The notes beneath the pieces are model-generated. The model saw only the letters and a list, made by a program, of their open reading frames with translations, made no database searches and was not told the origin of the DNA. DNA of 64,000 bases from Nemertoderma westbladi (taxonomy: Eukaryota; Animalia; Xenacoelomorpha): the NCBI GenBank assembly GCA_032718475.1, contig JAUCBJ010000530.1, positions 35,991 through 99,990 on the forward strand, in the 5' to 3' direction. The position numbers and the translations under genes were made by a program. This document shows, piece after piece, positions 1,372-37,900 of the stretch (its first letter is position 1; the number at the start of each line of letters is the position of its first letter).

Positions 1372-1972
1372 CTAAACATGTAGTGACACCATCTCCTGTA
1401 TATCCAGTTTTGCAACTACAACTAAATCCACCATCAGTATTGGAACAGTCAGCATTAATGTGGCAGTTGTCTGTGTTTAATGTACATTCATCATCATCTA
1501 TAAAATTATTTTAAATTTATTTTTTAAGTAAATATAATTATAATATAAAAATACAAAATGTTTTCAGCTATTAACAAATTATACCTATAATTGTATATGA
1601 AATTATTACCTGAACATGTAGTGACACCATCTCCTGTATATCCAGTTTTGCAACTACAACTAAATCCACCATCAGTATTGGAACAGTCAGCATTAATGTG
1701 GCAGTTGTCTGTGTTTAATGTACATTCATCATCATCTATAAAATTATTTTAAATTCATTTTTTAAGTAAATATAATTATAGTATAAAAAAATAAAATGTA
1801 TCCAGTTATTAACAAATTTGTCTCTAATTGTATATAAATTTATTACCTGCACATGTACTGACACCATCTCCTGTATATCCTGATTTGCAACTACAACTAA
1901 ATCCACCATCAGTATTGGAACAGTCAGCATTAATGTGGCAGTTGTCTGTGTTTAATGTACATTCATCATCAT
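1372..1972 (-). CDS. EGF exons 33-35 (1847-1972, 1610-1735, 1372-1497)
   Basis: Same module; the last exon still ends in a GT donor, so the gene should continue leftward. Confidence 0.9.
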
Positions 1973-4900: not shown

Positions 4901-7900
4901 TATTAACAAATTATATCTATAATCAATGGATAACAAATTCTAGAATTTATTCTTAATATTTAAGTGACGCATATTATTTTATCATACATAAACAAATGAG
5001 TATTCTTTAATACTTAATAGAGAATATTGATATTAATCAAAATTAACACAACCAAATTAAATATATATATAAAGAGTTGATCGATAGAGTATTTCAGTAT
5101 TATATGTTATACATTTGTTTATGTGGATCTCAACAGCTCGGCCGTGGGCTAGTATTGTGTCGTTATGTCTCGTCCACGAAGACCGGCCCCATCGCCAAAC
5201 CCAAGTCCACGCCAAGATCTGCGACCACCACGGAGGCAAAGAGAACTCGATCTCAGCAGTGCAAATTGCAATCTTCGTCGAACGCCTCCCAACACGCTGG
5301 CGAGACCGCGCTCACGCATTGGTTGGTGCTTCCCCACCAGGACTTCTGCAATGTGATTGATCAGTATCCTGGTTTCTGGACACCACACACCGTCTGTGGT
5401 ACCCATGAGTGGAGTGAACGACATCCGTCGGTCTTCACAGACAGTGCGGTAGTGGCGCCTCTTATAGATGCAGCGTTCTTCGAGGAGAGACTCGGTGGAT
5501 CGATTGGCCTGGGCGTACGAGGTGGCGTCAGCGTTTATAATCACAACATCTAACGACGCCACCCGTTGGTTCGCCCAGAGCCCTCGCGCTACTAAATCGG
5601 CTCGTACACCCCCGACCGTTGTCCCAGTGTTGTCTAGCTGTCCCTGGGACAGGGTTACCTCGCGCTCGACGCTTGTGGCCCCAACCACAGAAGCAAGCAG
5701 GTCGCCAAACACCTTGCGGACCTCGTCGTGGCACTTCACTATCAAACCCCCCAGCTTGCAGCTCAGGGCATGGGAGGTAGAGAACTCGCCTCCACAACAC
5801 TCGCACTTCACTGGCAGGCCGGGAGGGACTAAGCCATACCGGAGGGCCAGGTTATCGCGGAACTCCTCCGCACTTAGGTCCGTGTGATGTAATACCGAGG
5901 GCTGTGCATTCAGCCAGCCTCTGCTCCGATGGTTTACCGCACGTTCGACCGTTCTCCGCTGGGCTGCAGGGATGGCTTCCAGTACAGAATCCCGTTTCTC
6001 TATAAAGGTTACTTCCAGTTCTTCCCTGGATTTCTTGAGTTCCTGTTTTAGTTGCAAGACGTGATCGGCAACTTGTAGCGTTGTGCCGTTTCAAATCGCC
6101 TCCGAAACTAAGACAGTGCCTTTGGTGGATGCTTGATGCGCCGACAACCTTCTGATCAACGGATCCCGAATTCCAATTCCTCCGTGTCGTGTTGGTAGTA
6201 AAAGCAACTCCTCATCCGTATCCCCAAGAACTGGAAACCCAAAAATGGCAGGTATGAAGTCGAGGAGGAGAGCCGTCCGGATTGGGGCGATTTGGTCTAA
6301 GGTTGTAGGGATCACTCTCAGCAGGTAGTCCCATTCTGCTTGGACGCAGAGTGAGACCGCGGTATGCGCTGATTGGGGGTATTCCTTCGCTACTGCTGAA
6401 AGTTTACGGACACTGTCCTTCCAACCCGCCACCTTCTCGCTAATGTAGACGTTCCTTCCCGACGCAGCCCCGATGAAACCGCCCAAGTAACGATGTCCGG
6501 ATACGATCTGTACCCCTGTCTGGGTAAATAATTCCTGGGCCTCAACTTCACAGCCAGGCTTAACAATCAGGAATGTTTCCGAGGGCTCGGGAAAGTATCC
6601 AATCATTGGACCGATCTCCATAAGTACGTCCCACCACTCACGAATACTGGCGAGTTTACCAGCTGATGAGGAGTCGTCGGCATACCAACATTGAGTCTGA
6701 TCCCTGCGGTTCAGGTCCGGTTGTGGAGAAATAACTGGAGCCGATGGCTCCTCGCGATGGTTGGGCGGTGTCGATTGTGGAGTCGATGGGATGAAGTCTG
6801 TGGAAGATGGTGACTGAGATCTAACCTCACGCAGCTTCCTAACCAATGGTAGGGTTGCGCAGGCGTAGCCAAACATGGCGGCTGGGTCCCCTTGCGTCCA
6901 GCCCTCACTGCTCCACAGTGGATTGTTGCTGCCGTGTAGGTAGAGTGCTGCGTGTCCATTATACGAGTTATATAAAAACCGAGAAGCGCGGTGCCACAGG
7001 ACTCTGCAGTTCCAAAGAGAAACTGGCCGACTCACTTGAGTTGAATGCATTTTTCGCGTCAACGAGAAGCATTGCTTGAGTTTCATCATCCTCGAATACA
7101 GCTGTCATTGCGTGGACTGCCGCTTCGATGCCGGCCTTTATTCCCGCACACAACTGGTCGGCGCCGCACTGCTGAATGAGATCGGCCTTGGTTTCATCCA
7201 TTAGGCAGTTCGCTATGAGGCGGTACAGCACTTCAGGGATTCCGATGGGCCGAACTCCTGGTAGTTTGTCGAGTGCCACTAAACGGCAGGCCCGCAATGC
7301 CCGAATCTCTCCCCATGGTACAACCGTATTGGCCAGACAACGAGTCAAACCCGCTACAGCTTCCCGGAGCCTGGAGCTGTGACCTTCATACCTCGTTAGG
7401 AGTGCGCACCAAAACTCACCGTCACCTCCAACCGGTCCTGCGCTACCACGCAACGCTCTCGCATTCTTCGAAACACACTGCCCAGTAATATCGATCCCTT
7501 CGAACTGCGGCAGGTCGTGACAGGGGTCGAGTGATTCCACCGGAACTTCCATCTGAGGTAGGTGTTTCTCCACCAGGATGTCTCTAACCGTGACACCAAG
7601 GGGTTTACCCCCTGCATGCGCATTCGGGTCCAACATTCCGCCAGAATCCCGATCGGTCACTAACCTCACTGCGGCCCGGTCCATCCCCGCGAGAATCTTT
7701 CGGTTGAATAACCGCGCTGAATTATCAGCTGTGGAAATGCCTCTACTCGAAGGGAACTTCGCGTTACAGCGCTCCGACTCAGTGAGGAGGGGGTCGAACT
7801 CGCCACGCTCCCACATCTCAACACGCCTCAGTATCGTTCTCCTGATATCAGGACTCTTTACTACATCCGGGTCCCTCTGAAACATTAAGGCGATGAAGCA

Positions 7901-10900
7901 CAGAGGGCGTTCTGAAGGGTGCTGACCCTGAGTAAGGCCCTCAATCTCCTGGGTGAGAACATCTACGAGCTTACGCCCAGCATTGCCACCTGGAACCACA
8001 TACCTCCTACTGGGTAACTGAGCCAGACGAGCATGTCTAGCTTCCCAAACGGGATCCATTGAGCTTCCAGGACCGTTAATCCACACGCCACCGAAGGCGG
8101 ATTCGAGGACCTTGGAAGTTGAGAGAGGCGTTGAAGGTGACGACTCAGGAGAACCTGCTACCGGAGAAGGGCCCGAGCTAGTGGGAGAAAGTTGGCCTGC
8201 GTTGTTTCCAGTTGCCAAGCTTGCGTTGCTGTTTAGAGCGGCTGTTTGTGGGTTTAAACAGCTTCCTGACGACGACGGCGTGCAATTCGCACAAGGGCGT
8301 TGGGCCCTGACACATCCACATCGACTGGTGGGGCTACATCCACTAATCGTGCAGCCACAGCAGCGCTGTGAACTGAGCGACATTGGATCCTTGGTGGTAA
8401 TAGGATCTTCTGCTATTGATATAGTATCCCCCACTCTAGATGTAATTACTGGATTTTGAGGTTTAGATATGCAAGGAGTTAAATGGGAAATTATAAAACC
8501 AGATCCTATACAGGATGTACCCTTCACATTCTTATGCTTCCGCAACTTACCACTTTGATTGGCTGCAATCATTTTTTGGCAGGAAGGGCATAGATTTTTG
8601 CCAGTTTGTGCAATAGGAGGCTGGTTAAGAGAACCTTGCTGAGTTGGGGAGGGTTGATGGGTTGGAGGAGAAACTGATTGGGTGGTAGGTAACTGGGTGT
8701 TAGTGGGTTGTGAGGGGACTGAGTCTGCAGCTTTCACTAGAACTGATTTTAATGACACCAAGGAATGAAGATATACACGAAAGGACTGCATAGAGGTATC
8801 GTTAACTGTTTCAATCGACTCCTTATTTAGGATGAGTTGTGCAAACTTACAGACGTAGATACCACATTGATAACCATTGTACTGGAGCTTAGGGAGTGGA
8901 GGAGAAATATGAAAATCACATAGAGGGATTCTGAAACGATTAGCCTCATTAGATAGCCATAATTTGAATTCATCTATGAGTTTTAAGTCCAATCCACCAA
9001 GTGAGTTGAAATAGCAAATCTCCCATGTAGCGGGTGAAAAGGTAAGCAGTGTCCAATGGTTGTTACAATGGATGGGAAAGAATAAATAATCTAATGAAAA
9101 GTCACTTAATCTGGTCCAACTTTTTAATGATTCATAACCTCCTTTGCTCCTTAGTATATAAAGAAAGCGAGTGCTGAAAACTCGTACTTTCTGTGCATTC
9201 GCAATGCACATTACACCAATGACACTTTCTATAATGTTATCTGTTACCCAATTTTGGCCGTCCAAGCTTCCAATATCCCTTTCTGAGAGTGTAAAACCTT
9301 CATAATTGTATGTGTTTACATAATTGGGGGGGGACGTCATTCGAGAGTAGCGATTCGGTAAGGTCGATGCAGCTTGAATTCATTTTACAGGTAGTAGTAG
9401 ATCAGCTAGTTGTTGGGCGAAAGTCCAATAAAACATGTAATATACATTTGGTGGGCAATATAACATAAATTAACATCATTATACTAGGCCTATATCATAT
9501 TAAGGTTCCTATTTTTATAAATCTTATTTTTGTAGTAACAATTACGTAATAGCTAGTATATAATAAAAATTCACTCTGAGAATTAACTCTGAAAATTTAT
9601 TCACCCTCTCTTACTCAAAAATTCTAGAAACCCCATCTAAATAAAATATAATATATAAATCCAATTATATCTATAATTGGATTTAAATTTATTACCTGCA
9701 CATGTAGTGACACCATCTCCTGTATATCCAGTTTTGCAACTACAACTAAATCCACCATCAGTATTGGAACAGTCAGCATTAATGTGGCAGTTGTCTGTGT
9801 TTAATGTACATTCATCATCATCTATAAAATTATTTTAAATTCATTTTTTAAGTAAATACAATTATAGTATAAAAACATAAAATGTATCCAGTTATTAACA
9901 AATTTGTCTCTAATTGTATATAAATTTATTACCTGCACATGTAATGACACCATCTCCTGTATATCCTGATTTGCAACTACAACTAAATCCACCATCAGTA
10001 TTGGAACAGTCAGCATTAATGTGGCAGTTGTCTGTGTTTAATGTACATTCATCATCATCTATAAAATTATTTTAAATTCATTTTTTAAGTAAAATACAAT
10101 TATAGTATAAAAACATAAAATGTATCCAGTTATTAACAAATTTGTCTCTAATTGTATATAAATTTATTACCTGCACATGTAATGACACCATCTCCTGTAT
10201 ATCCTGATTTGCAACTACAACTAAATCCACCATCAGTATTGGAACAGTCAGCATTAATGTGGCAGTTGTCTGTGTATAATGTACATTCATCATCATCTAT
10301 AAAATTATTTTAAATTTTTTTTTTAAGTAAATATAATTATAGTATAAAAATATAAAATGTTTTTAGCTATTAACAAATTATATCTATAATTGTATATAAA
10401 TTTATTACCTGCACATGTAGTGACACCATCTCCTGTATATCCTGATTTGCAACTACAACTAAATCCACCATCAGTATTGGAACAGTCAGCATTAATGTGG
10501 CAGTTGTCTGTGTTTAATGTACATTCATCATCATCTATAAAATTATTTTAAATTTATTTTTTAAGTAAATATAATTATAGTATAAAAATATAAAATGTTT
10601 TTAGCTATTAACAAATTATATCTATAATTGGATTTAAATTTATTACCTGCACATGTAGTGACACCATCTCCTGTATATCCTGATTTGCAACTACAACTAA
10701 ATCCACCATCAGTATTGGAACAGTCAGCATTAATGTGGCAGTTGTCTGTGTTTAATGTACATTCATCATCATCTATAAAATTATTTTAAATTCATTTTTT
10801 AAGTAAATACAATTATAGTATAAAAACATAAAATGTATCCAGTTATTAACAAATTTGTCTCTAATTGTATATAAATTTATTACCTGCACATGTAATGACA

Positions 10901-13900
10901 CCATCTCCTGTATATCCTGATTTGCAACTACAACTAAATCCACCATCAGTATTGGAACAGTCAGCATTAATGTGGCAGTTGTCTGTGTTTAATGTACATT
11001 CATCATCATCTATAAAATTATATTAAATTCATTTTTTAAGTAAATACAATTATAGTATAAAAACATAAAATGTATCCAGTTATTAACAAATTTGTCTCTA
11101 ATTGTATATAAATTTATTACCTGCACATGTAATGACACCATCTCCTGTATATCCAGTTTTGCAACTACAACTAAATCCACCAGCAGTATTGGAACAGTCA
11201 GCATTAATGTGGCAGTTGTGTGTGTTTAATGTACATTCATCATCATCTATAAAATTATATTAAATTCATTTTTTAAGTAAATACAATTATAGTATAAAAA
11301 CATAAAATGTATCCAGTTATTAACAAATTTGTCTCTAATTGTATATAAATTTATTACCTGCACATGTAGTGACACCATCTCCTGTATATCCTGATTTGCA
11401 ACTACAACTAAATCCACCATCAGTATTGGAACAGTCAGCATTAATGTGGCAGTTGTCTGTGTTTAATGTACATTCATCATCATCTATAAAATTATATTAA
11501 ATTCATTTTTTAAGTAAATACAATTATAGTATAAAAACATAAAATGTATCCAGTTATTAACAAATTTGTCTCTAATTGTATATAAATTTATTACCTGCAC
11601 ATGTAACGACACCATCTCCTGTATATCCAGTTTTGCAACTACAACTAAATCCACCAGCAGTATTGGAACAGTCAGCATTAATGTGGCAGTTGTCTGTGTT
11701 TAATGTACATTCATCATCATCTATAAAATTATATTAAATTCATTTTTTAAGTAAATACAATTATAGTATAAAAACATAAAATGTATCCAGTTATTAACAA
11801 ATTTGTCTCTAATTGTATATAAATTTATTACCTGCACATGTAATGACACCATCTCCTGTATATCCAGTTTTGCAACTACAACTAAATCCACCAGCAGTAT
11901 TGGAACAGTCAGCATTAATGTGGCAGTTGTCTGTGTTTAATGTACATTCATCATCATCTATAAAATTATATTAAATTCATTTTTTAAGTAAATACAATTA
12001 TAGTATAAAAACATAAAATGTATCCAGTTATTAACAAATTTGTCTCTAATTGTATATAAATGTATTACCTGCACATGTAGTGACACCATCTCCTGTATAT
12101 CCAGATTTGCAACTACAACTAAATCCACCATCAGTATTGGAACAGTCAGCATTAATGTGGCAGTTGTCTGTGTTTAATGTACATTCATCATCATCTATAA
12201 AATTATATTAAATTCATTTTTTAAGTAAATACAATTATAGTATAAAAACATAAAATGTATCCAGTTATTAACAAATTTGTCTCTAATTGTATATAAATTT
12301 ATTACCTGCACATGTAGTGACACCATCTCCTGTATATCCAGTTTTGCAACTACAACTAAATCCACCATCAGTATTGGAACAGTCAGCATTAATGTGGCAG
12401 TTGTCTGTGTTTAATGTACATTCATCATCATCTATAAAATTATTTTAAATTCATTTTTTAAGTAAATACAATTATAGTATAAAAACATAAAATGTATCCA
12501 GTTATTAACAAATTTGTCTCTAATTGTATATAAATTTATTACCTGCACATGTAATGACACCATCTCCTGTATATCCAGTTTTGCAACTACAACTAAATCC
12601 ACCAGCAGTATTGGAACAGTCAGCATTAATGTGGCAGTTGTCTGTGTTTAATGTACATTCATCATCATCTATAAAATTATATTAAATTCATTTTTTAAGT
12701 AAATACAATTATAGTATAAAAACATAAAATGTATCCAGTTATTAACAAATTTGTCTCTAATTGTATATAAATTTATTACCTGCACATGTAGTGTCACCAT
12801 CTCCTGTATATCCAGTTTTGCAACTACAACTAAATCCACCATCAGTATTGGAACAGTCAGCATTAATGTGGCAGTTGTCTGTGATTAATGTACATTCATC
12901 ATCATCTATAAAATTATTTTAAATTTATTTTTTAAGTAAATATAATTATAGTATAAAAATATAAAATGTTTTTAGCTATTAACAAATTATATCTATAATT
13001 GTATTTAAATTTATTACCTGCACATGTAGTGACACCATCTCCTGTATATCCTGATTTGCAACTACAACTAAATCCACCAGCAGTATTGGAACAGTCAGCA
13101 TTAATGTGGCAGTTGTGTGTGTTTAATGTACATTCATCATCATCTATAAAATTATATTAAATTCATTTTTTAAGTAAATACAATTATAGTATAAAAACAT
13201 AAAAATGTATCCAGTTATTAACAAATTTGTCTCTAATTGTATATAAATTTAATACCTGCACATGTAATGACACCATCTCCTGTATATCCTGATTTGCAAC
13301 TACAACTAAATCCACCATCAGTATTGGAACAGTCAGCATTAATGTGGCAGTTGTCTGTGTTTAATGTACATTCATCATCATCTATAAAATTATATTAAAT
13401 TCATTTTTTAAGTAAATACAATTATAGTATAAAAACATAAAATGTATCCAGTTATTAACAAATTTGTCTCTAATTGTATATAAATTTATTACCTGGACAT
13501 GTAATGACACCATCTCCTGTATATCCAGTTTTGCAACTACAACTAAATCCACCAGCAGTATTGGAACAGTCAGCATTAATGTGGCAGTTGTCTGTGTTTA
13601 ATGTACATTCATCATCATCTATAAAATTATTTTAAATTCATTTTGTAGGTAAATATAATTTTAGTATAAAAACAGAAAATGTGTTTAGCTATTAACAAAT
13701 TCAGTCTAGATAGTTAGTTATATATGAATTTATTACCTAAACAAGTAGTGACACCATCTCCTGTATATCCAGATTTGCAACTACAACTAAATCCACCATC
13801 AGTATTGGAACAGTCAGCATTAATGTGGCAGTTGTCTGTGTTTAATGTACATTCATCATCATCTATAAAATTATATTAAATTCATTTTTTAAGTAAATAC

Positions 13901-16900
13901 AATTATAGTATAAAAACATAAAATGTATCCAGTTATTAACAAATTTGTCTCTAATTGTATATAAATTTATTACCTGCACATGTAATGACACCATCTCCTG
14001 TATATCCAGTTTTGCAACTACAACTAAATCCACCATCAGTATTGGAACAGTCAGCATTAATGTGGCAGTTGTCTGTGTTTAATGTACATTCATCATCATC
14101 TATAAAATTATTTTAAATTTATTTTTTAAGTAAATATAATTATAGTATAAACATATAAAATGTTTTTAGCTATTAACAAATTATATCTATAATTGTATAT
14201 AAATTTATTACCTAAACATGTAGTGACACCATCTCCTGTATATCCTGATTTGCAACTACAACTAAATCCACCAGCAGTATTGGAACAGTCAGCATTAATG
14301 TGGCAGTTGTGTGTGTTTAATGTACATTCATCATCATCTATAAAATTATATTAAATTCATTTTTTAAGTAAATACAATTATAGTATAATAACATAAAATG
14401 TATCCAGTTATTAACAAATTTGTCTCTAATTGTATATAAATTTATTACCTGCACATGTAATGACACCATCTCCTGTATATCCAGTTTTGCAACTACAACT
14501 AAATCCACCAGCAGTATTGGAACAGTCAGCATTAATGTGGCAGTTGTCTGTGTTTAATGTACATTCATCATCATCTATAAAATTATTTTAAATTCATTTT
14601 GTAGGTAAATATAATTTTAGTATAAAAACAGAAAATGTGTTTAGCTATTAACAAATTCAGTCTAGATAGTTAGTTATATATGAATTGATTACCTAAACAT
14701 GTAGTGACACCATCTCCTGTATATCCTGATTTGCAACTACAACTAAATCCACCAGCAGTATTGGAACAGTCAGCATTAATGTGGCAGTTGTCTGTGTTTA
14801 ATGTACATTCATCATCATCTATAAAATTATATTAAATTCATTTTTTAAGTAAATACAATTATAGTATAAAAACATAAAATGTATCCAGTTATTAACAAAT
14901 TTGTCTCTAATTGTATATAAATTTATTACCTGCACATGTAATGACACCATCTCCTGTATATCCAGTTTTGCAACTACAACTAAATCCACCAGCAGTATTG
15001 GAACAGTCAGCATTAATGTGGCAGTTGTCTGTGTTTAATGTACATTCATCATCATCTATAAAATTTTATTAAATTCATTTTGTAGGTAAATATAATTATA
15101 GTATAAAAACAGAAATTGTGTTTAGCTATTAACACATTCTGTCTAGATAGTTATATTTGAATTTATTACCTAAACATGTAGTGACACCATCTCCTGTATA
15201 TCCAGTTTTGCAACTACAACTAAATCCACCATCAGTATTGGAACAGTCAGCATTTATTTATTTATTTCGTACATATTAAATTGCATTACAACAACTAATA
15301 GTACAGCATACATAGTGGAAAAGCACAAGAATATGAATATGAGCCTAAACTACTATAGTACAATATTGAATATATATAATGCTAATTACGTAGTACAACT
15401 AAATATCAATATAACGATCGCCTAGTTCAACTAGTAAATAGTTACAAAGTGTTTACAATAATTACAAATTAGATCAAATCGATATACATTTACAATCGTT
15501 GTATCACATATGAAAAATTGAAAAATCCTATTTAAATTATAATTTCGGGATTATTTCTAAAGGTTACGAAGCACATATATAATTTAAAATATCATTAAGT
15601 TCCTCTGTGGAGAAACCTGGTACGAATAAATCGTCCTCCCCATGTTTACAATTGACCAATTCACGACAAAGATTAATATATGGTAAATTAGAATCATTTA
15701 CAAACCAAGAAATATTATTGCACATTTTCGCTGTCACACAATGAATAGCTAGATTACATTTATTGGCGATACGCTTAAGATTCGTACCACTAATCGACCT
15801 ACAGTCGTATAATGTAAGATTTGCAAGAAAACGAATACTAGGTTTTGCGCAATTAGAAATTGATGTGGCAAAATTAACAAAGCGGCTGCATAACATCGTC
15901 ATAGGATACGGAAAATCTGAAAGCCCCTCAACAAAAAATCTGTGTGTATTGTAAGGTAATTTCCAGGTTAAACGAAAGTTAATATTCCAACTAGTAATCA
16001 GCTTATGACAACTATCACTCCAATATCCCATAGAATACTACCGTAGAAACTTGTAGCAAAAATGTGCTGAATTTTACAGATACTGTGTGGATGAGCAAAG
16101 CTAAATTCACGTCTAATACAATTCAATTTACCTATGAATTTACCTCTTTTACTTAAAATATCTTTATAGAATTTGCCCTCAAAATCAAAAATGTTTCCCA
16201 AATGTGTCGCTTCTATAACCCATGGTAAAATAATGTTACGAATTCGAAAAGTAGCTACTGGGACATTCCAACTGAAATCAAAAGGGATGCACTTCGATTT
16301 ACTTTTAACCGCGTCACGGTTGGTACTAAACGACATATGAAATTCATCAGCAAACGTGACACATATATTTAACATCTGTTGCAACCCTTTAATTGACGGG
16401 CACACTAAGAAAATATTGTCAGCGTATACGAACACACCTACAAATCTGGATGCAATGTGACAACCAAGGGCACTGGCTCTAAGTTTAATAATTAGTTTGT
16501 TTATAATAACACAAAACAAAATCGGTGAAGCCCCCGAATCCTTGTCTGACACCATTGCCAATACTGAAAGTTCTCGAACATGTTGAACCCCACTTGACAA
16601 AACAATATTGACCATTATACATAAATAATAATGTACGCAAAAACAACGAAGAAAACCCTTTATTGAAAAGTTCTAGGAATAACGACTTCCATTCAATCAT
16701 ATCAAATGCCTTAGTTAAATCTAATAAGCATCCAAAAACAGGGGTGGAATTAATGTGGCAGTTGTCTCTGTTTAATGTACATTCATCATCATCTATAAAA
16801 TTATATTAAATTCATTTTGTTGGTAAATATAATTTTAGTATAAAAACAGAAATAATGTGTTTAGCTATTAACAAATTCTGTCAAGATAGTTATATATGAA

Positions 16901-19900
16901 TTTATTACCTAAACATGTAGTGACACCATCTCCTGTATATCCAGTTTTGCAACTACAACTAAATCCACCATCAGTATTGGAACAGTCAGCATTAATGTGG
17001 CAATTGTCTGTGTTTAATGTACATTCATCATCATCTGAAATAATTATTTTAAATTTACTCATTAAGTAAATATAATTATATAACAACATAAAATATTTTC
17101 CGCTATTAACAAATTATATGAATGAATTTCCGCACAGATTGTAGCATACATGCAACTACCAATAAACGGACTAAACCTGAATTACTGTAATGGTAACTTT
17201 TGCTATTTTGATTTTGATATTTATATTTTAATATAAGTTTTATTGTTTATTTATTGTTTATTGTTTAAGAACAATTCCCACACAAAGCATGCAGCACAGT
17301 GGTAATATACTGAAAAATATAATAATGTATGTATATTATGTAAATACCGGTAGTGTAATTATTGTACTACATATAATAATACATACTCTGTGTAGATGGT
17401 GACTGGACGAGCAAGCCCATTAGTCCTACTAGGATCGGCATGTTGCATTGCAGCTGCATTTTTAAGAATGCTGTGCCGGCTTGTCCACTAGTCCCGATCC
17501 CATTAGTCCACTCACCATTTACACTCAATAACAAAACATACAATTACTTAAAGGGTCTACAGTACTAACTTATTCTACACCATACCAAGAAGATTAAACA
17601 TTGTGCGAAAAATATTATTTACGTTATTTTGGTATGGTTTATAATATCGTACAGTATTGAGTAAATGAATATGTTCAAATATATTATTTTGCATGCAAAC
17701 ACTACTGTAAAAATCCTAAATACTACTAAAATGAATTGCCGTGCCGTATTAGTACATAATTCCAAACATACAAATCTACATATTCTATAGTACTAACTTA
17801 TTAAACACCAAAACAACCAGCTGATACATATCATGTGAAAAATATTACTTACAGTACGGTTTATAATATTGTACAGTATTGAGTATCCGGATATGTGCAT
17901 ATATAGTCTATTGCATGCAAGCACTACTGTAAAATTATGTATGGCCTTTACGAGATTCCGGTTGATGTCGACCCATTTAGCAGTAGAGACTGGGAGGTGG
18001 TCTCGTGTTCCTGCCGACTCCAGGATCTGTAAGTGTGGTCTGGTGCAAACCGAAGCCCACGTAATTTGCGAGTGCACCCTGCTTAGCGATTTGCGTCGGG
18101 CAAATAATTTATCCTGCATTATTTGCCGTGATAGTTTTTCATTTGGACATTTTAAGAATTGTGAACTAATTGAACTCGTTTGTTTTGCTGGCTTTGCACG
18201 ATATTATATAAGTATTTTGTTAATAGTTTAGTAATAATTTTATCCTAACTATAGGAATATAGTATTTATAAGAATTATCAGTTCTTATGAATATAGTATT
18301 TATAAGAATTATCAGTTCTTATATATCTCTACGGTATCATATAATAGTCAGTATTGTTAGTGTCATGTATGTTTGTATTTGTCAGTCGCTTGTGGTCTTC
18401 GAACTTATTTGTCAATAAACACATCTATCTATCTAAAAATCCTAAATACTACCAATATTAATTGAACAGTTCGAAATGACAACATTATTGGAAAAGAAAG
18501 AAAGTAAGACTAATAAATCAATGAATACTAATAGTACAGTCTATTGCCATTTAGAAGCGAGCCTTCCAAAGCACGCTTAAACACAGAAAGAGTTTGAGAT
18601 TGGCTCACAGAGGGTGGGATGGAATTCCATACTGTAGGGGCTTGGACTCTAATAGATTGTCGGGCTATTTCGAGTTGAGTACGAGGTATTACACAGATGT
18701 TGTTTGTGGCGCTATGTGTACGGTGGTTATGTGTAGTTGACGTGAGCGTTAGTAATGATGTGAGTATATCAGTAGGAAGTAGATTGTGTAAGTGCTTGTA
18801 ACATAGTAAGCTAACTTGTTTAATATAAATAGATCTTATGGTTAGGGGATTAAATTCGGTGTGTCCGCTATCAGTAACTATGTTTTTTGCTCTCGGTTGT
18901 AACTTATGTAGCATGTTAACAGAAGTGGTTCTCTCTGCTGTATTCCGTCTGCGTCTACGTCGTCTGCACCTGCGCGTGGTCGATAAAGTAATGGATGGGG
19001 AGTTGTTTGTTAGTGTTTTAAATGCCCAGACAACAGTGCAATAGTAAAAGTATGGGCTCACCAGTGAGTGATAAAGTGTAGCTAACACAGTGGGAGTTGC
19101 AAAATTTTAAATTTTATTTAATAAACCTATAGTTCTACTTACCTTACTGCGTATGGAATCCAGGTGAAACTTCCAGCTGAGATTCTCATGTATCATTACT
19201 CCCAGGAATTTAAGAACTTTTACTTGTTTAATTGGTAGGCCGCTAACCATTATAGTTTGCGAATGCTCGTTTTCATAGCGTTTGTTCGGCGTTTTAAAAA
19301 TTATGAAACTTGTTTTTTTTTATATTTTAATGATAAGCGATTACTCTGAAACCATAGTGAGTTTTTCCAATTCAATGTTTGCATTTGTAATTAGATCTTT
19401 GTGATTCTTATTGGACATTAATATGTTTGTGTCATCTGCGAATAAAATCTGGTGTGAAGTGGAAGACACATTTACCATGTCATTAATATAAATTATAAAC
19501 AATAAGGGACCCAGAAGGGAACCCTGAGGGACACCACATGTTATTTTACCACAAGATGAATTACTACTATTACCTATAACAACATACTGTTTTCTATCAG
19601 TGAGGTAGCTTTGTATCCACGCTATTGCCATATCACTGAATCCATAATGCCGTCATTTTTGTATTAAAATTCCATGGTTTACCGTATCGAAAGCTTTGGA
19701 TAAATCGATTGATATTCCAATTGAATATTCACCTCTATCCATTACTTCGGTTATATTTTCAATTAAATCTAGGAGAGCTAATTGGGTGGAACGTTTGGTT
19801 CGAAAGCCGTATTGATTGGAAAATAGGATAGCCTGTTCTCTAAGGTGTTTTAAAATTTGGTAGTGAATAATTCAACAATTTAACAATTCAATTCAACATT

Positions 19901-25900: not shown

Positions 25901-28900
25901 TTCAGTATATTACAGTATTAATTGAGATTTTACTGTCAACTGGTCAAGACTGTTCTCTATCTATATACTGCCTTACTGACAGACTGGACTGGTATATCAT
26001 ATTCGAAAGTTAATTATGTCTGGATCTGGTTGCTCTTTCGCCTCCAAGGACCATGTTGAGGGAGTAATTTCGGCGTTTGAGGAAGCTGGTGGCTTCCAGT
26101 ACACTGTGCGTACCACTTCGGTCCCGTTATCCCAATTCTGGGACCCGGATCTGGGAGTGTTCGTCGGTGCGCCATACACGCACTTGATGGCATGTGGAAT
26201 GGGTAGAGTTCCTGACGTCAGCATACTCTGTTCGTCAGTGTGGCTCGCCAACAATGGTTTTGCATATTTGCAAAGGACTACCACGGAAATGTATGTGAAC
26301 TTTATTATTATATAGTGTTCTTTATTCTAGAGCTCTACAGCTCTATGAACTATTAGTAGTACAGTAGTACTATTTATTAGTACCAGTAAATATTTCTACT
26401 AAATCTTACTTTGTAGGTCTATGACACATATATTTATGGTGATTGGGTGATATACAATACATGTACCAGATACACAGACAAGATACATGTGTACGGTACA
26501 GTGTGGTTTGCTATACAAACCTTAATGAATACTGCTCACTGTGACTGATTTAAACACATCCTTGAATATTATTCTCAAATTTTAATAATTTATAATAATA
26601 TAGCCTACTCACCCCAATGCATTGTTTATTCTTTTTTGATATAATAGATAGTAACTTTATTTTTATTATTGAGTCAACTTAGTTTAATTCATTATGTTTG
26701 CATTGCATTCCTTAGGCAGGTGTCAGGAATAATACGATGAAGGGGGAATGTAAGTCGGAGATTGCAATCAAGAAAGTTGTTGCGTTCCATGACTTTGCTG
26801 TTGGTGGCAACACCACCAGCAGAATGAAGATGAAGGCTGCCAGTGATGTCAAGGAGGCCCTTCGTCTTGGTTCTGCCACCAGGGAGTGCCACTATGGTAA
26901 TGCTGGGGGCCTGACAGTCTACTGGGTTATGGTCCCCGATGTACATATATATTCCCAGCAACTTTTTTAAAAACCTTTTTTACATCCAATTTTTAGATTA
27001 GAGCTAATATTCGATAAATTGAGTGATTTGATATTATATATAAATCACTGGACATGTTAGCTATTTGTTTTAAAATAATTGTTATTTTCTTGAGCAACAA
27101 GTTTCTGTGTATGAGGGGTTCCAGCAACAAGTTGCTGAAACAAGTTTCTGAAACAAGTTGCAGAAACAAGTTGCAGCAACTTGTTTCTGTGTGTGAGGGG
27201 GTCCAGCAACAAGTTTCAGAAACAAGTTGCAGAAACAAGTTGCTCCGTGTGAGGGGGGCCTTATATTCTATTTATAGCTTGCATTTAAGGCAAAGCAGTC
27301 CCCGGCTATTTAATTTTGTCTTTCTCGTTGAAACCGGTGCCATAGCATAATCTATAGTAAAGCATTATATAGCGCGGGCAATGCCCGCATGCTGAATACC
27401 TATGTGTGGGCAATGCCCGCACGAAAGGGTTAAAAGCTTGATTGCTCTCGTTATGAATATCTGATCACCGATTATACATCTTACAACATTCCACCTGTTC
27501 TGAACAAATTAATATTATTATCCTTCATAGTGCTAAACCGGCTGGTTTAGGAGTATATTCAATGCAGTTCTTGTATCCATTAAAATACTCGTTGCACTCT
27601 TCCTGTACATCTGGTCATCAAAATATACAACTTACATCATTCCATTACCGGTTTTGAACCAAAATGATAACTCTTTCAATATGCTACAGTATATCAGACG
27701 GTTTAGGATTATATATAGCCAAAGCAGTACTCGTCTTCATTATAAACATCGTTGCGTTCGTCCTGTTTTGACTGAAAGTATTTTTCACAAACTTACACTT
27801 ACGACCTTTATAACTATGTAAATTCTCGAAACTGCACTTGGAACTGCTGATTTATGGCAGATGGACATACATACTGTACAATGTAGTTCATACCAAGCTT
27901 TTGAGAAAATACCGACAGCGTTACATAGGCCTATACGGCAGGTTGGTTGGAAATAGCTGCATTGAAACGGCAATTCTAACCATAATATTTCATGCCTGCA
28001 TTTTTAAGAATGCTGTGCAGGCTTGTCGACAAAATTGCGCCGCCACAACTCCCTATCACCCATGACATTTGCTAGATCATCCACATCTTCAAGGCCAGGG
28101 TCCTTTAAGATGCGTCTCAAGAAAGTCATGGGCTGTCCACCATGTTTATTCACTCCATGAGGCTGCCAAAGTACAAGATTATGCACTGGCTGGTCCTCAC
28201 GGCGAAAGCGGAGGCGATTTTGTTGTAGTGTCAAACTTGGGGGAACCAATGAGACACCTCCAATGTTATATAGTGTCTGGTTGGAGATGTGTGCATTGTA
28301 CTTGACACAATGAACCCGGCGTAGCATTCTTGTGAATGTGCCATCCAGAGATTTGGTGTCCTCAGCAGTTAGAGCCCAGCATGGACTCCCATAGAGGAGT
28401 ACTGAAACTACTGCTGCTCTAAATAATCGGACCTTAAGTTTCCAATTAATTCTCGGTGACTTCAAAATCCTGGAAAGCCTATTCAAGGCTGCCCATACCT
28501 TTCCCTTACGTATTCGAGGGTCCTCACCTGACTTCCGGATCCATGATCCCAGGTAACAGAAGTCGTCCACATGCTCAAGCATACCATCCTTCGAGCTTAT
28601 GTTCATCCGAACAGCTGACGACTGAATTGCTGAGGACTTTCAAAGTTAACTGTCAAAATTTTGCTCTTTCTGGAGTTAATAAAAAGACCAACACTAGAAG
28701 CAGCATGTTCTAATGAGCTGAGGAGCGTCCCCTCTAGTGATTCTGAGAGTACTCCTAAGTCATCAGCAAAGTCTAAATCAGTTAGGTACTTGGCGGCTTC
28801 CTCGACTTCTAGAGCCAGTAGGTAGAGTTATCATCACCCCACCCCATATGGTAGAACATAGTCAACCATAATTATGAACAAGAATGGTACAAGTGTGTCT

Positions 28901-31900
28901 CCCTGGAGGATGCCCCATAACACTTCAAATGGTTCTGTGTCACTGTCAACAGTAGATACAAATTTTGTCGAACCATCGTATACTGATCTGATTGCTGCAA
29001 TAATTTTATCAGGAATCCCATATAATGAAAGTATGCTGAACATACGTGAGCAAGAGAATGAATCAAAGGCCTTGAAGAAGTCAACAAAGATAACAGCCAG
29101 ATGCCTGTCTTTCTTTTTTGAGACGGCATGATGCTGCTGCACCCAACGGGTTGGGCACAACTGCAGAAGACGATCACGCTTGTGAGCCTGGTCATCTCCC
29201 TTATAAGCCACCGCTACTTCATCTTCCAATCAACACACACGTTTGCTTGATCCAAGCAGAAATGTCGCAACACTTGATAAAGCCCCGAACATGACCGAAA
29301 ACTCTCGGATTTTACAACTGGCCGACAGTGCGAGGTTGAGCCTGTGGCTGGCGCAGTGTACAAATGTTGTGAGGGGCTGTACATGACAAATGTTTGCCTG
29401 GCAGCCATTATATATTCCCGACATGGCCGCAGCACCATCATAACCCTGCCCATGGCATTGTTTGAGGGAGAAGCCCATGCCTTCAATATGTCGTTGGACC
29501 TGATTGCCAAGCGAGGCACCAGTTAAATTCTCTGCCTCGAAAAATCCCGTGAAGATTTCCTCGATCTCCCTGACTAGACTGACGATCCGGAGGCTAACCG
29601 ACACCTGTGACATCCTCCCTGCATCAGTTGTTTCATCAACAAGAGTCGAGAAGAACCAACCCTGCTTCTTTAATTTGCTGGTACAGCTTCTCTTTAAAGA
29701 CCTTGCCCGAACATTCTATCAGGTCGTTCTGAATCGTATTTGAAATGTACTTTGCATTGCCCGGCGCGTGCTCCAGCATTGAGGCAAGGGTTTTGTCCCC
29801 AGCATCCACTCGGAATCGAAGCAGATTCCTGAATAAACCAAACCCTCTTCCATACCTATGGTCTCTATTTCTTTTCTCTCAGCAATACCAACACGACCAT
29901 AGTCCCGGTGTCCACGGAGAGGAAGATTATTCCACCCACAGAACAGAACAGTCTTTATGATGGGGGACAGCTTTGCGCGGTTCGCAGCAATGACGGCAGC
30001 GTTGGTGCCTTCAATCAATGATTCAACATTCCTCTCAGGATGATGGAATCCCCCCATGAATCCACTAGCCGTGGTCATTGCTGTGATATGGGCGGCAGCG
30101 CGGTCATGCGCTGCGAGCACCTCGTTTGCCTTTTTAAACTTTATGGAACGGCAACGAGTTGGCGTACAGGTTGCATTTGCCATCCCCCCGCCACCCCAAC
30201 TCCTTCGGCGAAGAGCACAGAGGCTGCCTTGCAGGCGACGGCTGTATCCCAGCCAAGGATATAGATCCAACCACCAAGACTGGAAGCGGCAGCCTTCAAG
30301 GATAGGGGAGTTGAAACCAACAGGCGGCCTCCACTTGTTGGTCCAGAGCTGATATTTCTGGCCATCGTTCAACCGACGATGTCCGCCATCCTGACACACC
30401 ACCAAATCGTCAACAAGGTCATCCTGGGGTGCTGGTGCTAGAGGGAGAGCAGCAGTATCTTCATCAACACCAACCGGGACGGGAGGAGGAACTGGTTCTG
30501 ATTCTGATAGGACAGCGGCACTGTCTTCCTCAACACCAGCCAGGACGGGAGGAGGAACTGGTTCTGATAGGACAGTGGCATTGTCTTCCTCTTCCTCAAC
30601 ACCAACCGGGAAGGGAGGAGATCTTTTAGAAGAAGAGCCAAAAAAGTCTGTAATTCTCTTCATTATCGGTTTATGATTATTATACTGACCAAATACAGTG
30701 AATTACCGGTATAATATAATTTCAATACCTATAACTGTATAAGCCTATGCTCATGCTGATAGCCAGATAGCAGGATAGTGATATGCGCATTTTAAAGAAA
30801 CACTAAATTTGAAAAGAATATACCTCTGCTACCGGTACCGTATGAATTAGGCCTACCTCCAGACCTCAGTACTCTGAATTATGAAGAATTATGTATGGAG
30901 TAATATGTAGTATGTATATACTACATATTATGTAATATACAATATAACATATATAACATAATATAACATAACATATATTATGTATGTAATGCAGTAATAA
31001 TGTAGTAATGAGTAGGCCTAATGCAGTAATGTATTAGTTAGGCCTACAATGAAATAATGGCGCAAAAGTAGTAAATTAGACCTATTCCTTTCCTGTATTC
31101 AGTACTGCAGTAATAATTTAATATTCTGAATACGGTTGGCTTTCTCTATTCAACAGCAACACTGCTCCAGGTGCCAGGTATTATTTAGATATTATTAACA
31201 GGGATATTCACTTCCCTCAGTCTGTCTTATTGTACCGTTAAAAACTGTTACACAGTTTTTACTATTCATTTAAGCTTATAAGCTTATGCAAAATAAGAGG
31301 CCCTAATTTCATTGGCCGACAAGCTTGTGTTTGCTAAACAACCAACTCTGAATTATTGAGAGTGAGCTTTAAATTACTTTCCGTCTGTCATATACACCAT
31401 TACAGCATTAGGTAAGTAGGTAGTGTCGCTCTGGCGCCATAAATATTGCTTATCCACCTTTCAAATAATACACTGGAGCTCTGTTTATATGGCACACTAC
31501 TGCTTACCTTATCTCAGCTGTAATGATTAATCACTTCCACAGTCTTTTTGTTAACTTTGAAAGTCCTCAGCAAGTCTCTGATTGGATGAGCATAAGCTCA
31601 AAGGATGATATGCTTGAGCATGTGGATGACTTCTGTTACCTGGGATCATGGATCCGGAAGTCAGGTGAGGACCGTCAAATACGTAAGGGAAAGGCATGGG
31701 CAGCCTTGAATAGGCTTTCCAGGATTTGGAAATCACCGAGAATTAATCGGAAACTTAAGGTCTGATTATTTAGAGCAGCAGTAGTTCCAGTACTCCTCTA
31801 TGGAGTCCATGCTGGGCTCTAACTGCTGAGGACACCAAATCTCTGGATGGCACATTCACAAGAATGCTACGCCGGGTTCATTGTGTCAAGTACAATGACA

Positions 31901-34900
31901 CATCTCCAACCAGACACTTTATAACATTGGAGGTGTCTCATTGGTTCCCCCAAGCTTGACACTAGAACAAAATCGCCTCCGCTTTGCAGGACATTGCTTT
32001 CGCCGTGAGGACCAGAAGGTGCATAATCTTGTACTTTGGCAGCCTCATGTAGTGAATACACATGGTGGACAGCTCATGACTTTCTTGAGACGCATCTTAA
32101 AGGACACTGGCCTTGAAGATGCGGATGATCTAGCAAATGTCATGGGTGATAGGGAGTTGTGGCGGTGCAATTTTGTCGATAAGCCGGCACAGCATTCTTA
32201 AAAATGCAGCTGCAATGTAGCATGCTGATCCTAGTAGTAGTAGTATTGGTTCCCTCATGCTTGACACTTGATTAAAGCCGCCTCTGCTTTGTCTGATTTT
32301 GCTGTGAGGACCAGCCTGTGCACAATCTTGTGCTTTAGCAGCCCCATGGAGAAAATAAGCATGGTGGTCATCCCTTGACTTTCTTGAGACGCCTCTTAAA
32401 GGACACTGGCCTTGAAGATGAGGATAATCTCGCCAAGGTCATGGGGGATAGGGAGTTGTGGCAAGGTAATTTTGTTGATAAGTCAGTATAGTATTCTTAA
32501 TGCACGCTGCATTGGGCTTGCCAATTGTGGATTGCATGGTGGTAGTAATATACTTTTGTTAAGCCAGCATAGCATATCAATGTGCAGTTTCAATGCAGCA
32601 GGCCGATTATGGTACAGTAGTAGTTATGCAAATTTATTACCTAAACATGCAGCGACGCCATCTCCTGTATATCCAGTTTTGCAACTACAACTAAATCCAC
32701 CATCAGTATTGGAACAGTCAGCATTAATGTGGCAGTTGTCTATGTTTAATGTACATTCATCATCATCTATAAAATTATTTTAAATTCATTTTTTAAGTAA
32801 ATATAATTATAGTATAAAAGCAGAAAATGTATCCAGTTATTAACAAATTTTTCTATAATTGTATATAAAATTATTACCTAAACATGTAGTGACACCGTCT
32901 CCTGTATATCCTGATTTGCAACTACAACTAAATCCACCATCAGTATTGGAACAGTCAGCATTAATGTGGCAGTTGTCTGTGTTTAATGTACATTCATCAT
33001 TATCTATAAAATTATTTTAAATTCATTTTTTAAGTAAATATAATTATAGTATAAAAATATAAAATGTTTTTAGCTATCAACAAATTATACCTATAATGTT
33101 GATTAAATGTTTTTTTCGTTAGCATTAATAGAGAATATTGATATTAATCAAAATTAACACAACCAAATTAAATATATATATAAAGAGTTGATCGATAGAG
33201 TATTTCAGTATTATATGTTATACATTTGTTTATGTGGATCTCAACAGCTCGGCCGTGGGCTAGTATTGTGTCGTTATGTCTCGTCCACGAAGACTGGCCC
33301 CATCGCCAAACCCAAGTCCACGCCAAGATCTGCGACCACCACAGAGGCAAAGAGAACTCGATCTCAGCAGTGCAAATTGCAATCTTCGTCGAACGCCTCC
33401 CAACACGCTGGCGAGACCGCGCTCTCGCATTGGTTGGTGCTTCCCCACCAGGACTTCTGCAATGTGATTGATTAGTATCCTGGTTTCTGGACACCACACA
33501 CCGTCTGTGGTACCCACGAGCGGAGTGAACGACATCCGTCGGTCTTCACAGACAGTGCGGTAGTGGCGCCTCTTATAGCTGCAGCGTTCTTCGAGGAGAG
33601 ACTCGGTGGATCGATTGGCCTGGGCGTACGAGGTGGCGTCAGCGTTTATAATCGCAACATCTAACGACGCCACCCGTTGGTTCGCCCAGAGCCCTCGCAC
33701 TACTAAATCGGCTCGTACACCCCCGACCGTTGTACCAGCGTTGTCTAGATGTCCCCGGGACAGGGTTACCTCGCGCTCGACGCTTGTGGCCCTAACCACA
33801 GAAGCAAGCAGGTCGCCAAACACCTCGCAGACCTCGTCGTGGCGCTTCACTATCAAACCCCCCGACTTGCAGCTCAGGGCATGGGAGGTAGAGAACTCGC
33901 CTCCACAACCCTTGCACTTCACTGGCAGGCCGGGAGGGACTAGGCCATACCGGAGGGCCAGGTTATCCCGGAACTCCTCCGCACTTAGGTCCATGTGATC
34001 TAATATCGAGGGCTGTGCATTCAGCCAGCCTCCGGTCCGATGGTTTACCGCACGTTCGACCGTTCTCCGCCGGGCTGCAGGGATGGCTTCCAGTACAGAA
34101 TCCCGTTTCTCTATAAAGGTTACTTCCAGTTCTTCCCTGGATTTCTTGAGTTCCTGTTTTAGTTGCAAGACGTGATCGGTGACTTGTAGTGTTGTGCCGT
34201 TTCGAATCGCCTCCAAAACTAAGACAGTGCCTTTGGTAGATGCTTGATGCGCCGACAACCTTCTGATCAACGGATCCCGAAGTCCAATTCCTCTGTGTCG
34301 TGTTGGTAGTAAAAGCAACTCCTCATCCATATCCCCAAGAACTGGAAACCCGAAAATGGCAGGTATGAAGTCTAGGAGGAGAGCCGTCCGGATTGGGGCA
34401 ATTTGGTCTAAGGTTGTAGGGATCACTCTCAGCAGGTAGTCCCATTCCGCTTGGACGCAGAGTGAGACCGCAGTATGCGCTGATTGGGGGTATTCCTTCG
34501 CTACTGCTGAAAGTTTACGGACACTGTCCTTCCAACCCGCCACCTTCTCACTAATGTAGACGTTCCTTCCCGACTCAGCCCCGATGAAACTGCCCAAGTA
34601 ACGATGTCCGGATACGATCTGTACCCCTGTCTGGGCAAATAATTCCTGGGCCTCAACTTCACAGCCAGGCTTAACAATCAGGAATGTTTTCGAGGGCTCG
34701 GGAAAGTATCCAATCATCGGACCGATCTCCATAAGTACGTCCAACCACTCACGAATACTGGCGAGTTTACCAGCTGATGAGAACGACTGAGATCTAAACT
34801 CACGCAGCTTCCTAACCAATGGTAGGGTTGCGCAGGCGTAGCCAAACATGGCGGCTGGGTCCCCTTGCGTCCAGCCCTCACTGCTCCACAGTGGATCGTT

Positions 34901-37900
34901 GCTGCCGTATAGGTAGAGTGCTGCGTGTCCGTTATACGAGTTATATAAAAACCGAGAAGCGTGTTGCCACAGCACTCTGCAGTTCCAAAGAGAAACTGGC
35001 CGACTCACTGAGTTGTGGAATGCATTTTTCGCGTCAACGAGAAGCATTGCTTGAGTTTCATCGTCCTCGAATACAGCTGTCATTGCGTGGACTGCCGCAT
35101 CGATGCCGGCCTTTATTCCCACACACAACTGGTCGGCGCCGCACTGCTGAATGAGATCGGCCTTGGTTTCATCCATTAGGCAGTTCGCTATGAGGCGGTA
35201 CAGCACTTCAGGGATTCTGATGGGCCGAACTCCTGGTAGTTTGTCGAGTGCTACTAAACGGCAGGCCTGCAATGCCCGAATCTCTCCCATGGTACAACCG
35301 TATTGGCCAGACTACGAGTCAAACCCGCTACAGCTTCCCGGAGCCTGGAGCTGTGACCTTCATACCTCGTTAGGAGTGCGCACCAAAACTCACCGTCACC
35401 TCCAACCGGTCCTGCGCTACCACGCAACGCTCTCGCATTCTTCGAAACACGCTGCCCAGTAATATCGATCCCTTCGAACTGTGGCAGGTCGGGACAGGGG
35501 TCGAGTGATTCCACCGGAACTTCCATCTGAGGTGGGTGTTTCTCCACCAGGACGTCTCTAACCGTGACACCAAGGGGTTTACCCTCTGCCTGCGCATTCG
35601 GGTCCAAAACTCCGCCAGAATCCCGATCGGTCACTAACCTCACTGCGGCCCGGTTCATCCCCGCGAGAATCTTTCGGTTGAATAACTGCGCTGAATTATC
35701 AGCTGTGGAAATGCCTCTACTCGAAGGGAACTTTGCGTTACAGCGCTCCGACTCGGTGAGGAGGGGGTCGAACTCGCCATGCTCCCACATCTCAACACGC
35801 CTCAGTATCATTCTCCTGATATCAGGACTCTTTACTACATCCGGGTCCCTCTGAAACGTTAAGGCGATGAAGCACAGAGGGCGTTCTGAAGGGTGCTGAC
35901 CCTGAGTAAGGCCCTCAATCTCCTGGGTGAGAACATCTACGACCTTACGCCCAGCATTGCCACCCGGAACCACATACCTCCTACTAGGTACCCGAGCCAG
36001 ACGAGCATGTCTAGCTTCTCAAACGGGATCCGTTGAGCTTCCAGGACCGTTAATCCACACGCCACCGAAGGCGGATTCGAGGACCTTGGAAGTTGAGAGA
36101 GGCGTTGAAGGTGACGACTCAGGAGAACCTGCTACCGGAGAAGGGCCCGAGCTAGTGGGAGAAAGTTGGCCTGCGTTGTTTCCAGCTGCCAAGCTTGCGT
36201 TGCTGTTTAGAGCGGCTGTTTGTGGGTTTAAACAGCTTCCTGACGACGACGGCGTGCAATTCGCACAAGGGCGTTGGGCCCTGACACATCCACATCGACT
36301 GCTGGGGCTACATCCACTACTCGTGCAGCCACAGCAGCGTGGTGAACTGAGCGAGATTGGATCCTTGGTGGTACTAGAATCTTCTCCTATTGATATAGTA
36401 TCCCCCACTCTAGATGTAATTACTGGATTTTGAGGTTTAGATATGCAAGGAGTTAAATGGGAAATTATAAAACCAGATCCTATACAGGATGTACCCTTCA
36501 CATTCTTATGCTTCCGCAACTTACCACTTTGATTGGCTGCAATCATTTTTTGGCAGGAAGGGCATAGATTTTTGCCAGTTTGTGCAATAGGAGGCTGGTT
36601 AAGAGAACCTTGCTGAGTTGGGGAGGGTTGATGGGTTGGAGGAGAAACTGATTGGGTGGTAGGTAACTGGGTGTTAGTGGGTTGTGAGGGGACTGAGTCT
36701 GCAGCTTTCACTAGAACTGATTTTGATGACACCAAGGAATGAAGATATACACAAAAGGACTGGATAGAGGTATCGTTAACTGTTTCAATCGACTCCTTAT
36801 TTAGGATGAGTTGTGCAAACTTACAGACGTAGATTTATTATACCTATAATTGTATATAAATTTATTACCTGAACATGTAGTGACACCATCTCCTGTATAT
36901 CCAGTTTTGCAACTACAACTAAATCCACCATCAGTATTGGAACAGTCAGCATTAATGTGGCAGTTGTCTGTGTTTAATGTACATTCATCATCATCTATAA
37001 AATTATATTAAATTCATTTTGTAGGTAAATATAATTATAGTATAAAAACAGAAAATGTTTTTAGCTATTTGCAAATTCTGTCTAGATAGTTATATATGAA
37101 TTTATTACCTGCACATGTAGTGACACCATCTCCTGTATATCCAGTTTTGCAACTACAACTAAATCCACCATCAGTATTGGAACAGTCAGCATTTATGTGG
37201 CAGTTGTCTGTGTTTAATGTACATTCATCATCATCTATAAAATTATATTAAATTCATTTTGTAGGTAAATATAATTATAGTATAAAAACAGAAAATGTTT
37301 TTAGCTATTTGCAAATTCTGTCTAGATAGTTATATATGAATTTATTACCTGCACATGTAGTGACACCATCTCCTGTATATCCAGTTTTGCAACTACAACT
37401 AAATCCACCATCAGTATTGGAACAGTCAGCATTTATGTGGCAGTTGTCTGTGTTTAATGTACATTCATCAACATCTATAAAATAATGACTTACAGGCACA
37501 CGATGATTAAAAATTGAAGTAGTATGACATCATTAGGCCCTTATTTAAACCTTTTGAACAAGATCTCAACCGGACTTTTCATACCAGAATTTTTTGTCAC
37601 GAACTATTCGCCCCAGTTTATCTCACCTGAACTTCTCCCCCACAATTTCAGTCACAAGAGGAAAATTAATAAATTACTAGCTACCATAACACTGCTTATA
37701 AACAATAATTAGTAACGAAACATGCTTTACAATAATGTTAAAAATACTAGCTAACCTACAAAACTGGTAGGATTAGCTAACCTACAAAACTGGTAGGATT
37801 AGCTAACATTAAAAAAACACCAACTTTTTACAGATATAAGAAATCCAGGAGAACAATTCTGGGACGAAAAGTCCGGGTCGTAGATTATTAACAGTAATTT

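Follow-up and report, generated by a model that had tools for sequence, protein, structure and literature searches.

The window analysed here, a 64,000-nucleotide stretch of Nemertoderma westbladi DNA (contig JAUCBJ010000530.1, positions 35,991 to 99,990), contains two retrotransposon copies that interrupt the introns of a tandem EGF exon array at the same nucleotide and in the same orientation. A sequence-only reading of this DNA had already described the pair, and its coordinates and duplications proved correct. We consider it moderately probable that these are two decayed copies of an element resembling Cre-1_HM, each placed by its own target-primed insertion at a short, AT-rich dyad for which the encoded endonuclease would have a preference wherever the dyad is present. 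New here are the target dyad, an 8-base fold-back at the 5' junction of copy 1, and an Ulp1 domain at the start of the open reading frame (ORF). The host gene segment, the inserts and their flanking duplications are as follows.

1372..37474, minus strand: host gene segment with 35 calcium-binding EGF exon units of 126 bp, phase 1, and introns of about 112-120 bp
4924..9663, minus strand: insert of copy 1, the longer CRE-clade copy, with patchwork ends
4910..4923: copy 1 duplication on the 3' side of the element, dyad ATTATA-TC-TATAAT
9664..9677: copy 1 duplication on the 5' side of the element
33098..36836, minus strand: insert of copy 2, 5'-truncated, with a private tail at 33098-33124 (27 bases), two extra bases at the 5' junction and the YADD motif lost
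33084..33097: copy 2 duplication on the 3' side of the element, dyad ATTATA-CC-TATAAT
36837..36850: copy 2 duplication on the 5' side of the element
1578 (C form) and 10377, 10615, 12986 and 14180 (T form): empty dyad sites
10615..10628: empty dyad in an intron one base off the rebuilt empty intron of copy 1

Copy 1 is flanked by ATTATATCTATAAT at 4910-4923 and 9664-9677 (15 bp if positions 4909 and 9663 are included), and copy 2 by ATTATACCTATAAT at 33084-33097 and 36837-36850. Both lie on the minus strand, which is the sense strand of the EGF gene, at an identical intron position. The duplicated 14-mer is the dyad ATTATA-NN-TATAAT, 14 bp long in both copies, and the two duplicates of each copy agree at the variable letter, which is T for copy 1 and C for copy 2. 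As the earlier reading had stated, both variants also occur in empty introns. The dyad is present in 5 of the 28 empty introns (29 by a looser count), or in 7 of about 30 introns when the two filled ones are included. Both insertions are therefore in a minority variant (2/2 versus 5/28, Fisher p = 0.048, post hoc), and the proposal that site choice depends on sequence gains from this. The chance of the same base and strand being hit twice in a 112-base intron is about 1 in 224.

The two copies are 97% identical (5014-8860 versus 33125-36834; 99 substitutions in 3,707 aligned bases). Their 3' tails diverge past the common end at 5014/33125, extending for 90 bases in copy 1 versus 27 in copy 2. 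Copy 2 is truncated at the equivalent of 8860, with about 800 5' bases gone and the duplication still clean. In copy 1 the frame shifts near 7036-7042 and meets a stop at 6091-6093; in copy 2, 141 bases are replaced by 3 (which removes the YADD motif), one base is deleted near 35285 and a stop falls at the position matching 8047. Once rebuilt, the two empty introns are distinguished by six differences. That of copy 1 departs by a single base from the empty intron 10535-10646; the nearest to that of copy 2 are three T-form introns (four differences each), the C-form intron at 1498-1609 having seven. These differing tails, 5' junctions and breaks, together with the T/T and C/C duplications, agree with the earlier view that the insertions were independent. 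Two separate insertions are likely, because a model of duplication needs three precise remodelling events, which are given below.

Between the copies, 27 of 97 coding changes are synonymous (neutral expectation 30.0 ± 4.6), the ratio of nonsynonymous to synonymous rates (dN/dS) is 0.85, and 48 of the 99 changes are of CpG type. A selection test of copy 1 against copy 2 for distinct active source lineages showed none. Such neutral divergence fits two dead copies from near-identical donors; duplication alone would also give it. Among the read variants listed (40, with 227 more besides), 35 were compared, the other five falling at places that copy 2 lacks or borders. The copy 2 base was found in 29 of them and a base unlike both copies in 6, so other copies or alleles exist. 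Both copies are real DNA, because contigs of run X1 contain the private tail of copy 1 with zero differences and the joint of the copy 2 internal deletion; run X1, possibly the source sample itself, does not count as independent support. Runs X2 and X3 yielded no contig over the copy 1 private tail and no copy 2 deletion joint, a result that we do not take as polymorphism since contigs show presence only. No contig of run X4 aligned.

Two segments of the 3' ends need separate description.

4924..4978, minus strand: outer part of the copy 1 3' tail, the end of a different, far more abundant repeat, whose contigs also start with TAAT at 4920-4923
5014..5037, minus strand: 24-base 3' extension that the two copies share past the probable 3' end of the family near 5034-5038

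The 24-base extension was likely carried over from a donor flank. In run X1, summed contig depth is about 1000 at 4924-4978 versus 22 at 4981-5004, depth being a hint and not a copy number. Contigs over the outer tail go on with other letters at 4962, 4964 and 4978; the abundant repeat thus has at least three variant continuations and is possibly a SINE-like (short interspersed nuclear element) passenger. At the 5' end of copy 1, the region 9441-9662 holds 200 bases unlike the deeper contig form, which departs from the window sequence near 9441-9459, and loose ends at 9469, 9581, 9616 and 9620 suggest a patchwork of other repeats.

The element itself was characterized from its broken reading frame in copy 1.

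5149..9340, minus strand: broken single ORF of about 1400 codons, with Ulp1 protease, cysteine-rich region, reverse transcriptase (RT), CCHC knuckle and restriction-like endonuclease (RLE)
8765..9250, minus strand: Ulp1 (Peptidase_C48) domain, Pfam PF02902, E 6.2e-15, residues 44-205, in frame with the RT start

Judged by motifs matched by eye to a published alignment, the element is a CRE-clade element of Cre-1_HM type. Its RT motifs (GSAGP, ACRL..LDK.PG.RPIGI, Q.CAG..G.EAA.HAM, LL.DA.NAFN, S.EG.TQGDP.AM and W.ADD) follow, one by one, the Cre-1_HM row, labelled LINE_CR.., in supplementary file 6 of PMC5678591. Cre-1_HM also shares the single ORF with C-terminal CCHC knuckle and endonuclease; it differs in that the window element has an N-terminal Ulp1 domain and, in copy 1, a Pro/Ser-rich insert of 40 residues before YADD. 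The target of Cre-1_HM was not found in the literature searched. The copy frame is collinear over 549 columns with the adjoining Cre-1_BM-like element (probability 99.9). By hand count, the C-terminus of copy 2 reads C-X2-C-X7-H-X3-C-X8-RHD-X19-E-X20-RAD-X15-D, a spacing near the published CRE pattern with RAD as in MoTeR/FoTeR, although two spacers in the knuckle and endonuclease are one residue outside the CRE ranges (PMC12857005). A stricter endonuclease pattern ending in E-X2-K had no match in copy 1, copy 2 or the sister element described below.

A structural model of the 683-residue frame of copy 2 (46 sequences, mean predicted local distance difference test score, pLDDT, 86.1) best matches R2 structures (Foldseek E 2.5e-12; 9nl3, 9dou, 9nl2 and 8gh6), with 13-15% identity and a predicted RT-linker-endonuclease fold in common. 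The R2 profile match reached only E 1e-11, solved structures searched by sequence, with copy 2 as sole query, returned nothing relevant, and the look-alikes in an atlas were RT clusters without names. The domains and modelled fold support the earlier assignment to RLE-bearing non-LTR (long terminal repeat) retrotransposons. Its more specific label, HERO-like, had to be given up: HERO-2_DR and HERO-1_BF likewise combine RT with an RLE, but none of their RT motifs (GCLEH, WLDL.NAYG, G...GCTIS and RA.MDD) is found in the window element, whose motifs match the Cre-1_HM row. Some HERO families are non-specific or microsatellite-specific (PMC4640811).

The N-terminal Ulp1-like protease is a feature of NeSL and Utopia-1_TSP (PMC4640811). 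Membership in NeSL was considered and rejected: NeSL deletes its target site (PMC3636483), whereas the window element duplicates it and has CRE-type RT motifs. The protease was therefore likely gained separately, the fusion of Ulp1 to a CRE element pointing to its own capture of the protease type seen in NeSL. Ulp1 was present in none of 278 fetched relative proteins and none of 79 metagenome loci, and a query restricted to the Ulp1 portion had no hit in 349 candidates (441-1406 residues), a result weakened by these length limits. The metagenome loci are nearly all short collapsed contigs, and no convincing duplication was recovered from them. The Ulp1 part has a lower G+C content than the RT part (37-44% versus 53-57%) and a higher contig depth (a hint only), both of which would fit a recent capture from another repeat.

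Target-site duplication is shared with CRE1/CRE2/SLACS/CZAR and MoTeR/FoTeR (PMC3636483). Those elements target spliced-leader exons or telomeric repeats, in contrast to the AT-rich intron dyad seen here. The target lists in the available parts of PMC4640811 and PMC5035012 name RNA genes, microsatellites, telomeres and transposons and not repeated introns, and those of PMC4007536 and PMC7650587 add nothing on targets. No case of a repeated intron as a retrotransposon target was found in the literature searched, outside which lie Repbase Reports and most subscription journals, so that a prior description is possible.

The 14-bp duplication of a dyad would place both nicks at TATAAT/T, on opposite strands and at the same place of the dyad. 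Copy 1 fits if its apparent 15th duplicated base is counted as the first base of a fold-back.

9656..9663: inverted copy of the upstream flank, 8 bases, at the 5' junction of copy 1; perfect palindrome at 9656-9685 with 14-bp arms

Base 9663 is indeed the first of this exact inverted flank copy, and with it set aside a symmetric 14-base stagger fits both copies. We infer the following course. The endonuclease would nick the bottom strand at TATAAT/T, and the free TAAT end would prime reverse transcription where the RNA offers ATTA. The variable 3' tails suggest either read-through, with transcripts entering donor flanks, or template jumping. The top strand would then be nicked at the mirror TATAAT/T, 14 bases off, giving the 14-bp duplication. 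In copy 1, the self-complementary overhang would fold back and copy 8 bases of flank before joining the cDNA, which is the simplest account of the palindrome. Both copies would afterwards decay neutrally within their introns while the exons remain open, and the array, by multiplying the dyad site, would raise the number of available targets. R2 recognises a long asymmetric site in ribosomal DNA. Besides the modelled fold, it resembles the window element in its snap-back 5' junctions (PMC11371274). Template jumping without homology is described for long interspersed nuclear elements (LINEs) of both the RLE and the apurinic/apyrimidinic endonuclease (APE) type (PMC6895275).

The family is probably not confined to the array, judging from contigs of two samples, for which 18 of 21 loose ends, of at most 30 letters each, were listed. 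Among these, the family 3' end is joined to five distinct other sequences, at 5014, 5020, 5026, 5030 and 5034; a diverged relative may account for the joins at 5014 and 5030. Three of the joined sequences (the best-matching or deepest pieces) had no match in the window at three mismatches. None of the 18 loose ends shows the EGF intron directly after the family 3' end, nor is copy 2's own tail among them. Several contigs begin at 5034 and 5038, and the usual family 3' end is therefore likely at 5034-5038. By eye, TAAT stands at or near several of the join points, and the abundant repeat in the copy 1 tail also has it at its end. The possibility that the 3' tails are old intron copies was ruled out: in 12 shuffle tests they resembled the intron no more than chance (P 0.052-0.998), leaving no sign that the donors sat in the intron.

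Several observations weigh against a preference for a short dyad. Full junction pairs number two, and only about two other junctions look dyad-like. The TAAT at 5034-5037 may be the element's own sequence, and a loose end unlike the intron is no proof of another locus, because 27-114 non-target tail bases are present in copies 1 and 2 themselves. No stable hairpin is predicted for the 14-base overhang (0 to -0.5 kcal/mol), and correction from the insert, after integration, could instead have produced the flank variant behind the fold-back. In 43,302 non-array bases of the window, ATTA-N6-TAAT occurs eight times and ATTATA-NN-TATAAT once. The AT-rich genome should accordingly hold very many sites, and depth hints at few long copies: in run X1, single contigs of the RT region have depths of 35-55 versus 22-24 for copy-specific contigs, a weak hint that gives no copy number. 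That two of what seem to be few long copies share one array is not readily accounted for by a short motif.

Such clustering would call for a longer recognised sequence or a local hotspot, and preference for the intron is thus kept as a minority possibility. On that account the endonuclease recognises a longer intron sequence, the homogenised exon-intron array is the main target, and some off-target or tail-extended copies lie elsewhere. Apart from the apparent scarcity of long copies, it would explain why both insertions have the same orientation as well as the same base although the dyad permits both orientations. The majority of CRE-clade families have specific targets, and Utopia is known to combine relaxed specificity with off-target copies (PMC4640811). 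It is disfavoured by the 3' joins to non-intron sequences and the lack of intron after the family end among the listed loose ends, by the presence of the dyad in a minority of units, by the chance-level resemblance of the tails to the intron and by the absence of purifying selection between the copies. As to strict site specificity, both window copies share the site, and the five other 3' joins from contigs are short and incomplete. In its boldest form, an Ulp1-bearing metazoan CRE family specific for the repeated intron of the EGF array and cutting the dyad symmetrically like a restriction enzyme, the idea is likewise rather improbable. The sequence-only reading had proposed that the array serves as a multicopy safe harbour. 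The shared base in the array stands in its favour, and the 3' joins to sequences absent from the window, the 5 of 28 dyad introns, the neutral divergence and the placement of two other CRE families at different sites in the window count against it; the proposal is only weakened, because the loose ends are short and the copies compared are those of the window and the contigs.

It is distinctly unlikely that the array is instead a break-prone or open hotspot in which cDNA was captured at the dyad without any choice of site by the endonuclease. Three CRE copies and another LINE do interrupt introns or exons of the array, many more elements occupy 17-32 kb, and the fold-back and patchwork ends resemble repair. 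However, the duplications are clean at 14 bp, register and orientation are identical, the dyad of 14-16 bp is too weak to fold, and the third CRE copy belongs to a family that chose another position, in a non-dyad unit.

2013..4376, minus strand: second CRE family, Cre-1_BM-like, 5'-truncated, in a non-dyad unit of this intron and elsewhere along it, flanked by 11-bp duplicates at 2002-2012 and 4377-4387

By eye, this element follows the Cre-1_BM row of the published alignment. It retains an open frame of 622 codons, and a piece of its target is re-copied inside its 5' junction at 4358-4367.

It is very improbable that a single insertion was copied along with the array, with deletion and gene conversion reshaping it later: tandem arrays do recombine, and the common 24-base 3' extension and neutral differences are as between duplicates, but this history needs a deletion of about 800 bases stopping exactly at the duplication, a tail exchanged within the other duplication and an identical T/C change on its two sides, and the neutral difference is equally expected of two dead-on-arrival copies from one donor.

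The host gene is of animal type, lies on the minus strand and is only partly inside the window. Its EGF exons are near-identical (Pfam EGF_3, E 1.9e-12; EGF_CA, E 1.6e-10), and 34 of the 35 units have GT-AG ends and open frames. The remaining unit, at 15170, is split by a LINE fragment at 15255-16750 (RVT_1, E 1.5e-5) without a flanking duplication of at least 8 bp; this unit must be skipped, or that part of the array is dead. Upstream of the EGF units, the segment 38572-38896 is likely another host-gene exon.

A third CRE family lies outside the EGF introns.

39329..43221, plus strand: 5'-truncated member of a sister CRE family (65% identity over 1169 bases), in quasi-palindromic AT-rich DNA, ends uncertain

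Its placement in such DNA, away from the EGF introns, supports the short-dyad reading. The sister element has a proline-rich repeat insert of about 190 codons between its QGDP and YADD-type motifs, compared with about 40 in copy 1 and 90-135 in the database relatives P0003, P0134 and P0264. Its 5' flank (39271-39329) is a 59-bp imperfect palindrome, and the adjoining 43255-43445 is, by eye, a long hairpin-like repeat, possibly a miniature inverted-repeat transposable element (MITE). Elsewhere, a Copia-like LTR element (46206-51245) has an open ORF of 1501 codons (RVT_2, rve) and short terminal repeats that are near-identical by eye (about 46206-46368 and 51082-51242). Broken transposase-like frames occupy 29230-30702 (DUF4371, E 3.4e-11), and minisatellite arrays lie at 54055-57367 (20-bp unit, about 145 copies) and 62553-63999 (30-bp unit, about 48 copies). 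No Rfam family was found in positions 1-45000 of the window.

Overall, a preference for a short AT-rich dyad, multiplied by the array, is the likely explanation for the two insertions. Should specificity for the intron prove true, site-specific retrotransposons would have a new class of multicopy target, namely a protein-coding gene's repeated intron. The weaker interpretation still predicts, in a poorly studied group, that both nicks fall at TATAAT/T across the dyad, 14 bases apart. This prediction concerns the placement of the second nick by these endonucleases and may be relevant where such proteins are sought for gene insertion.

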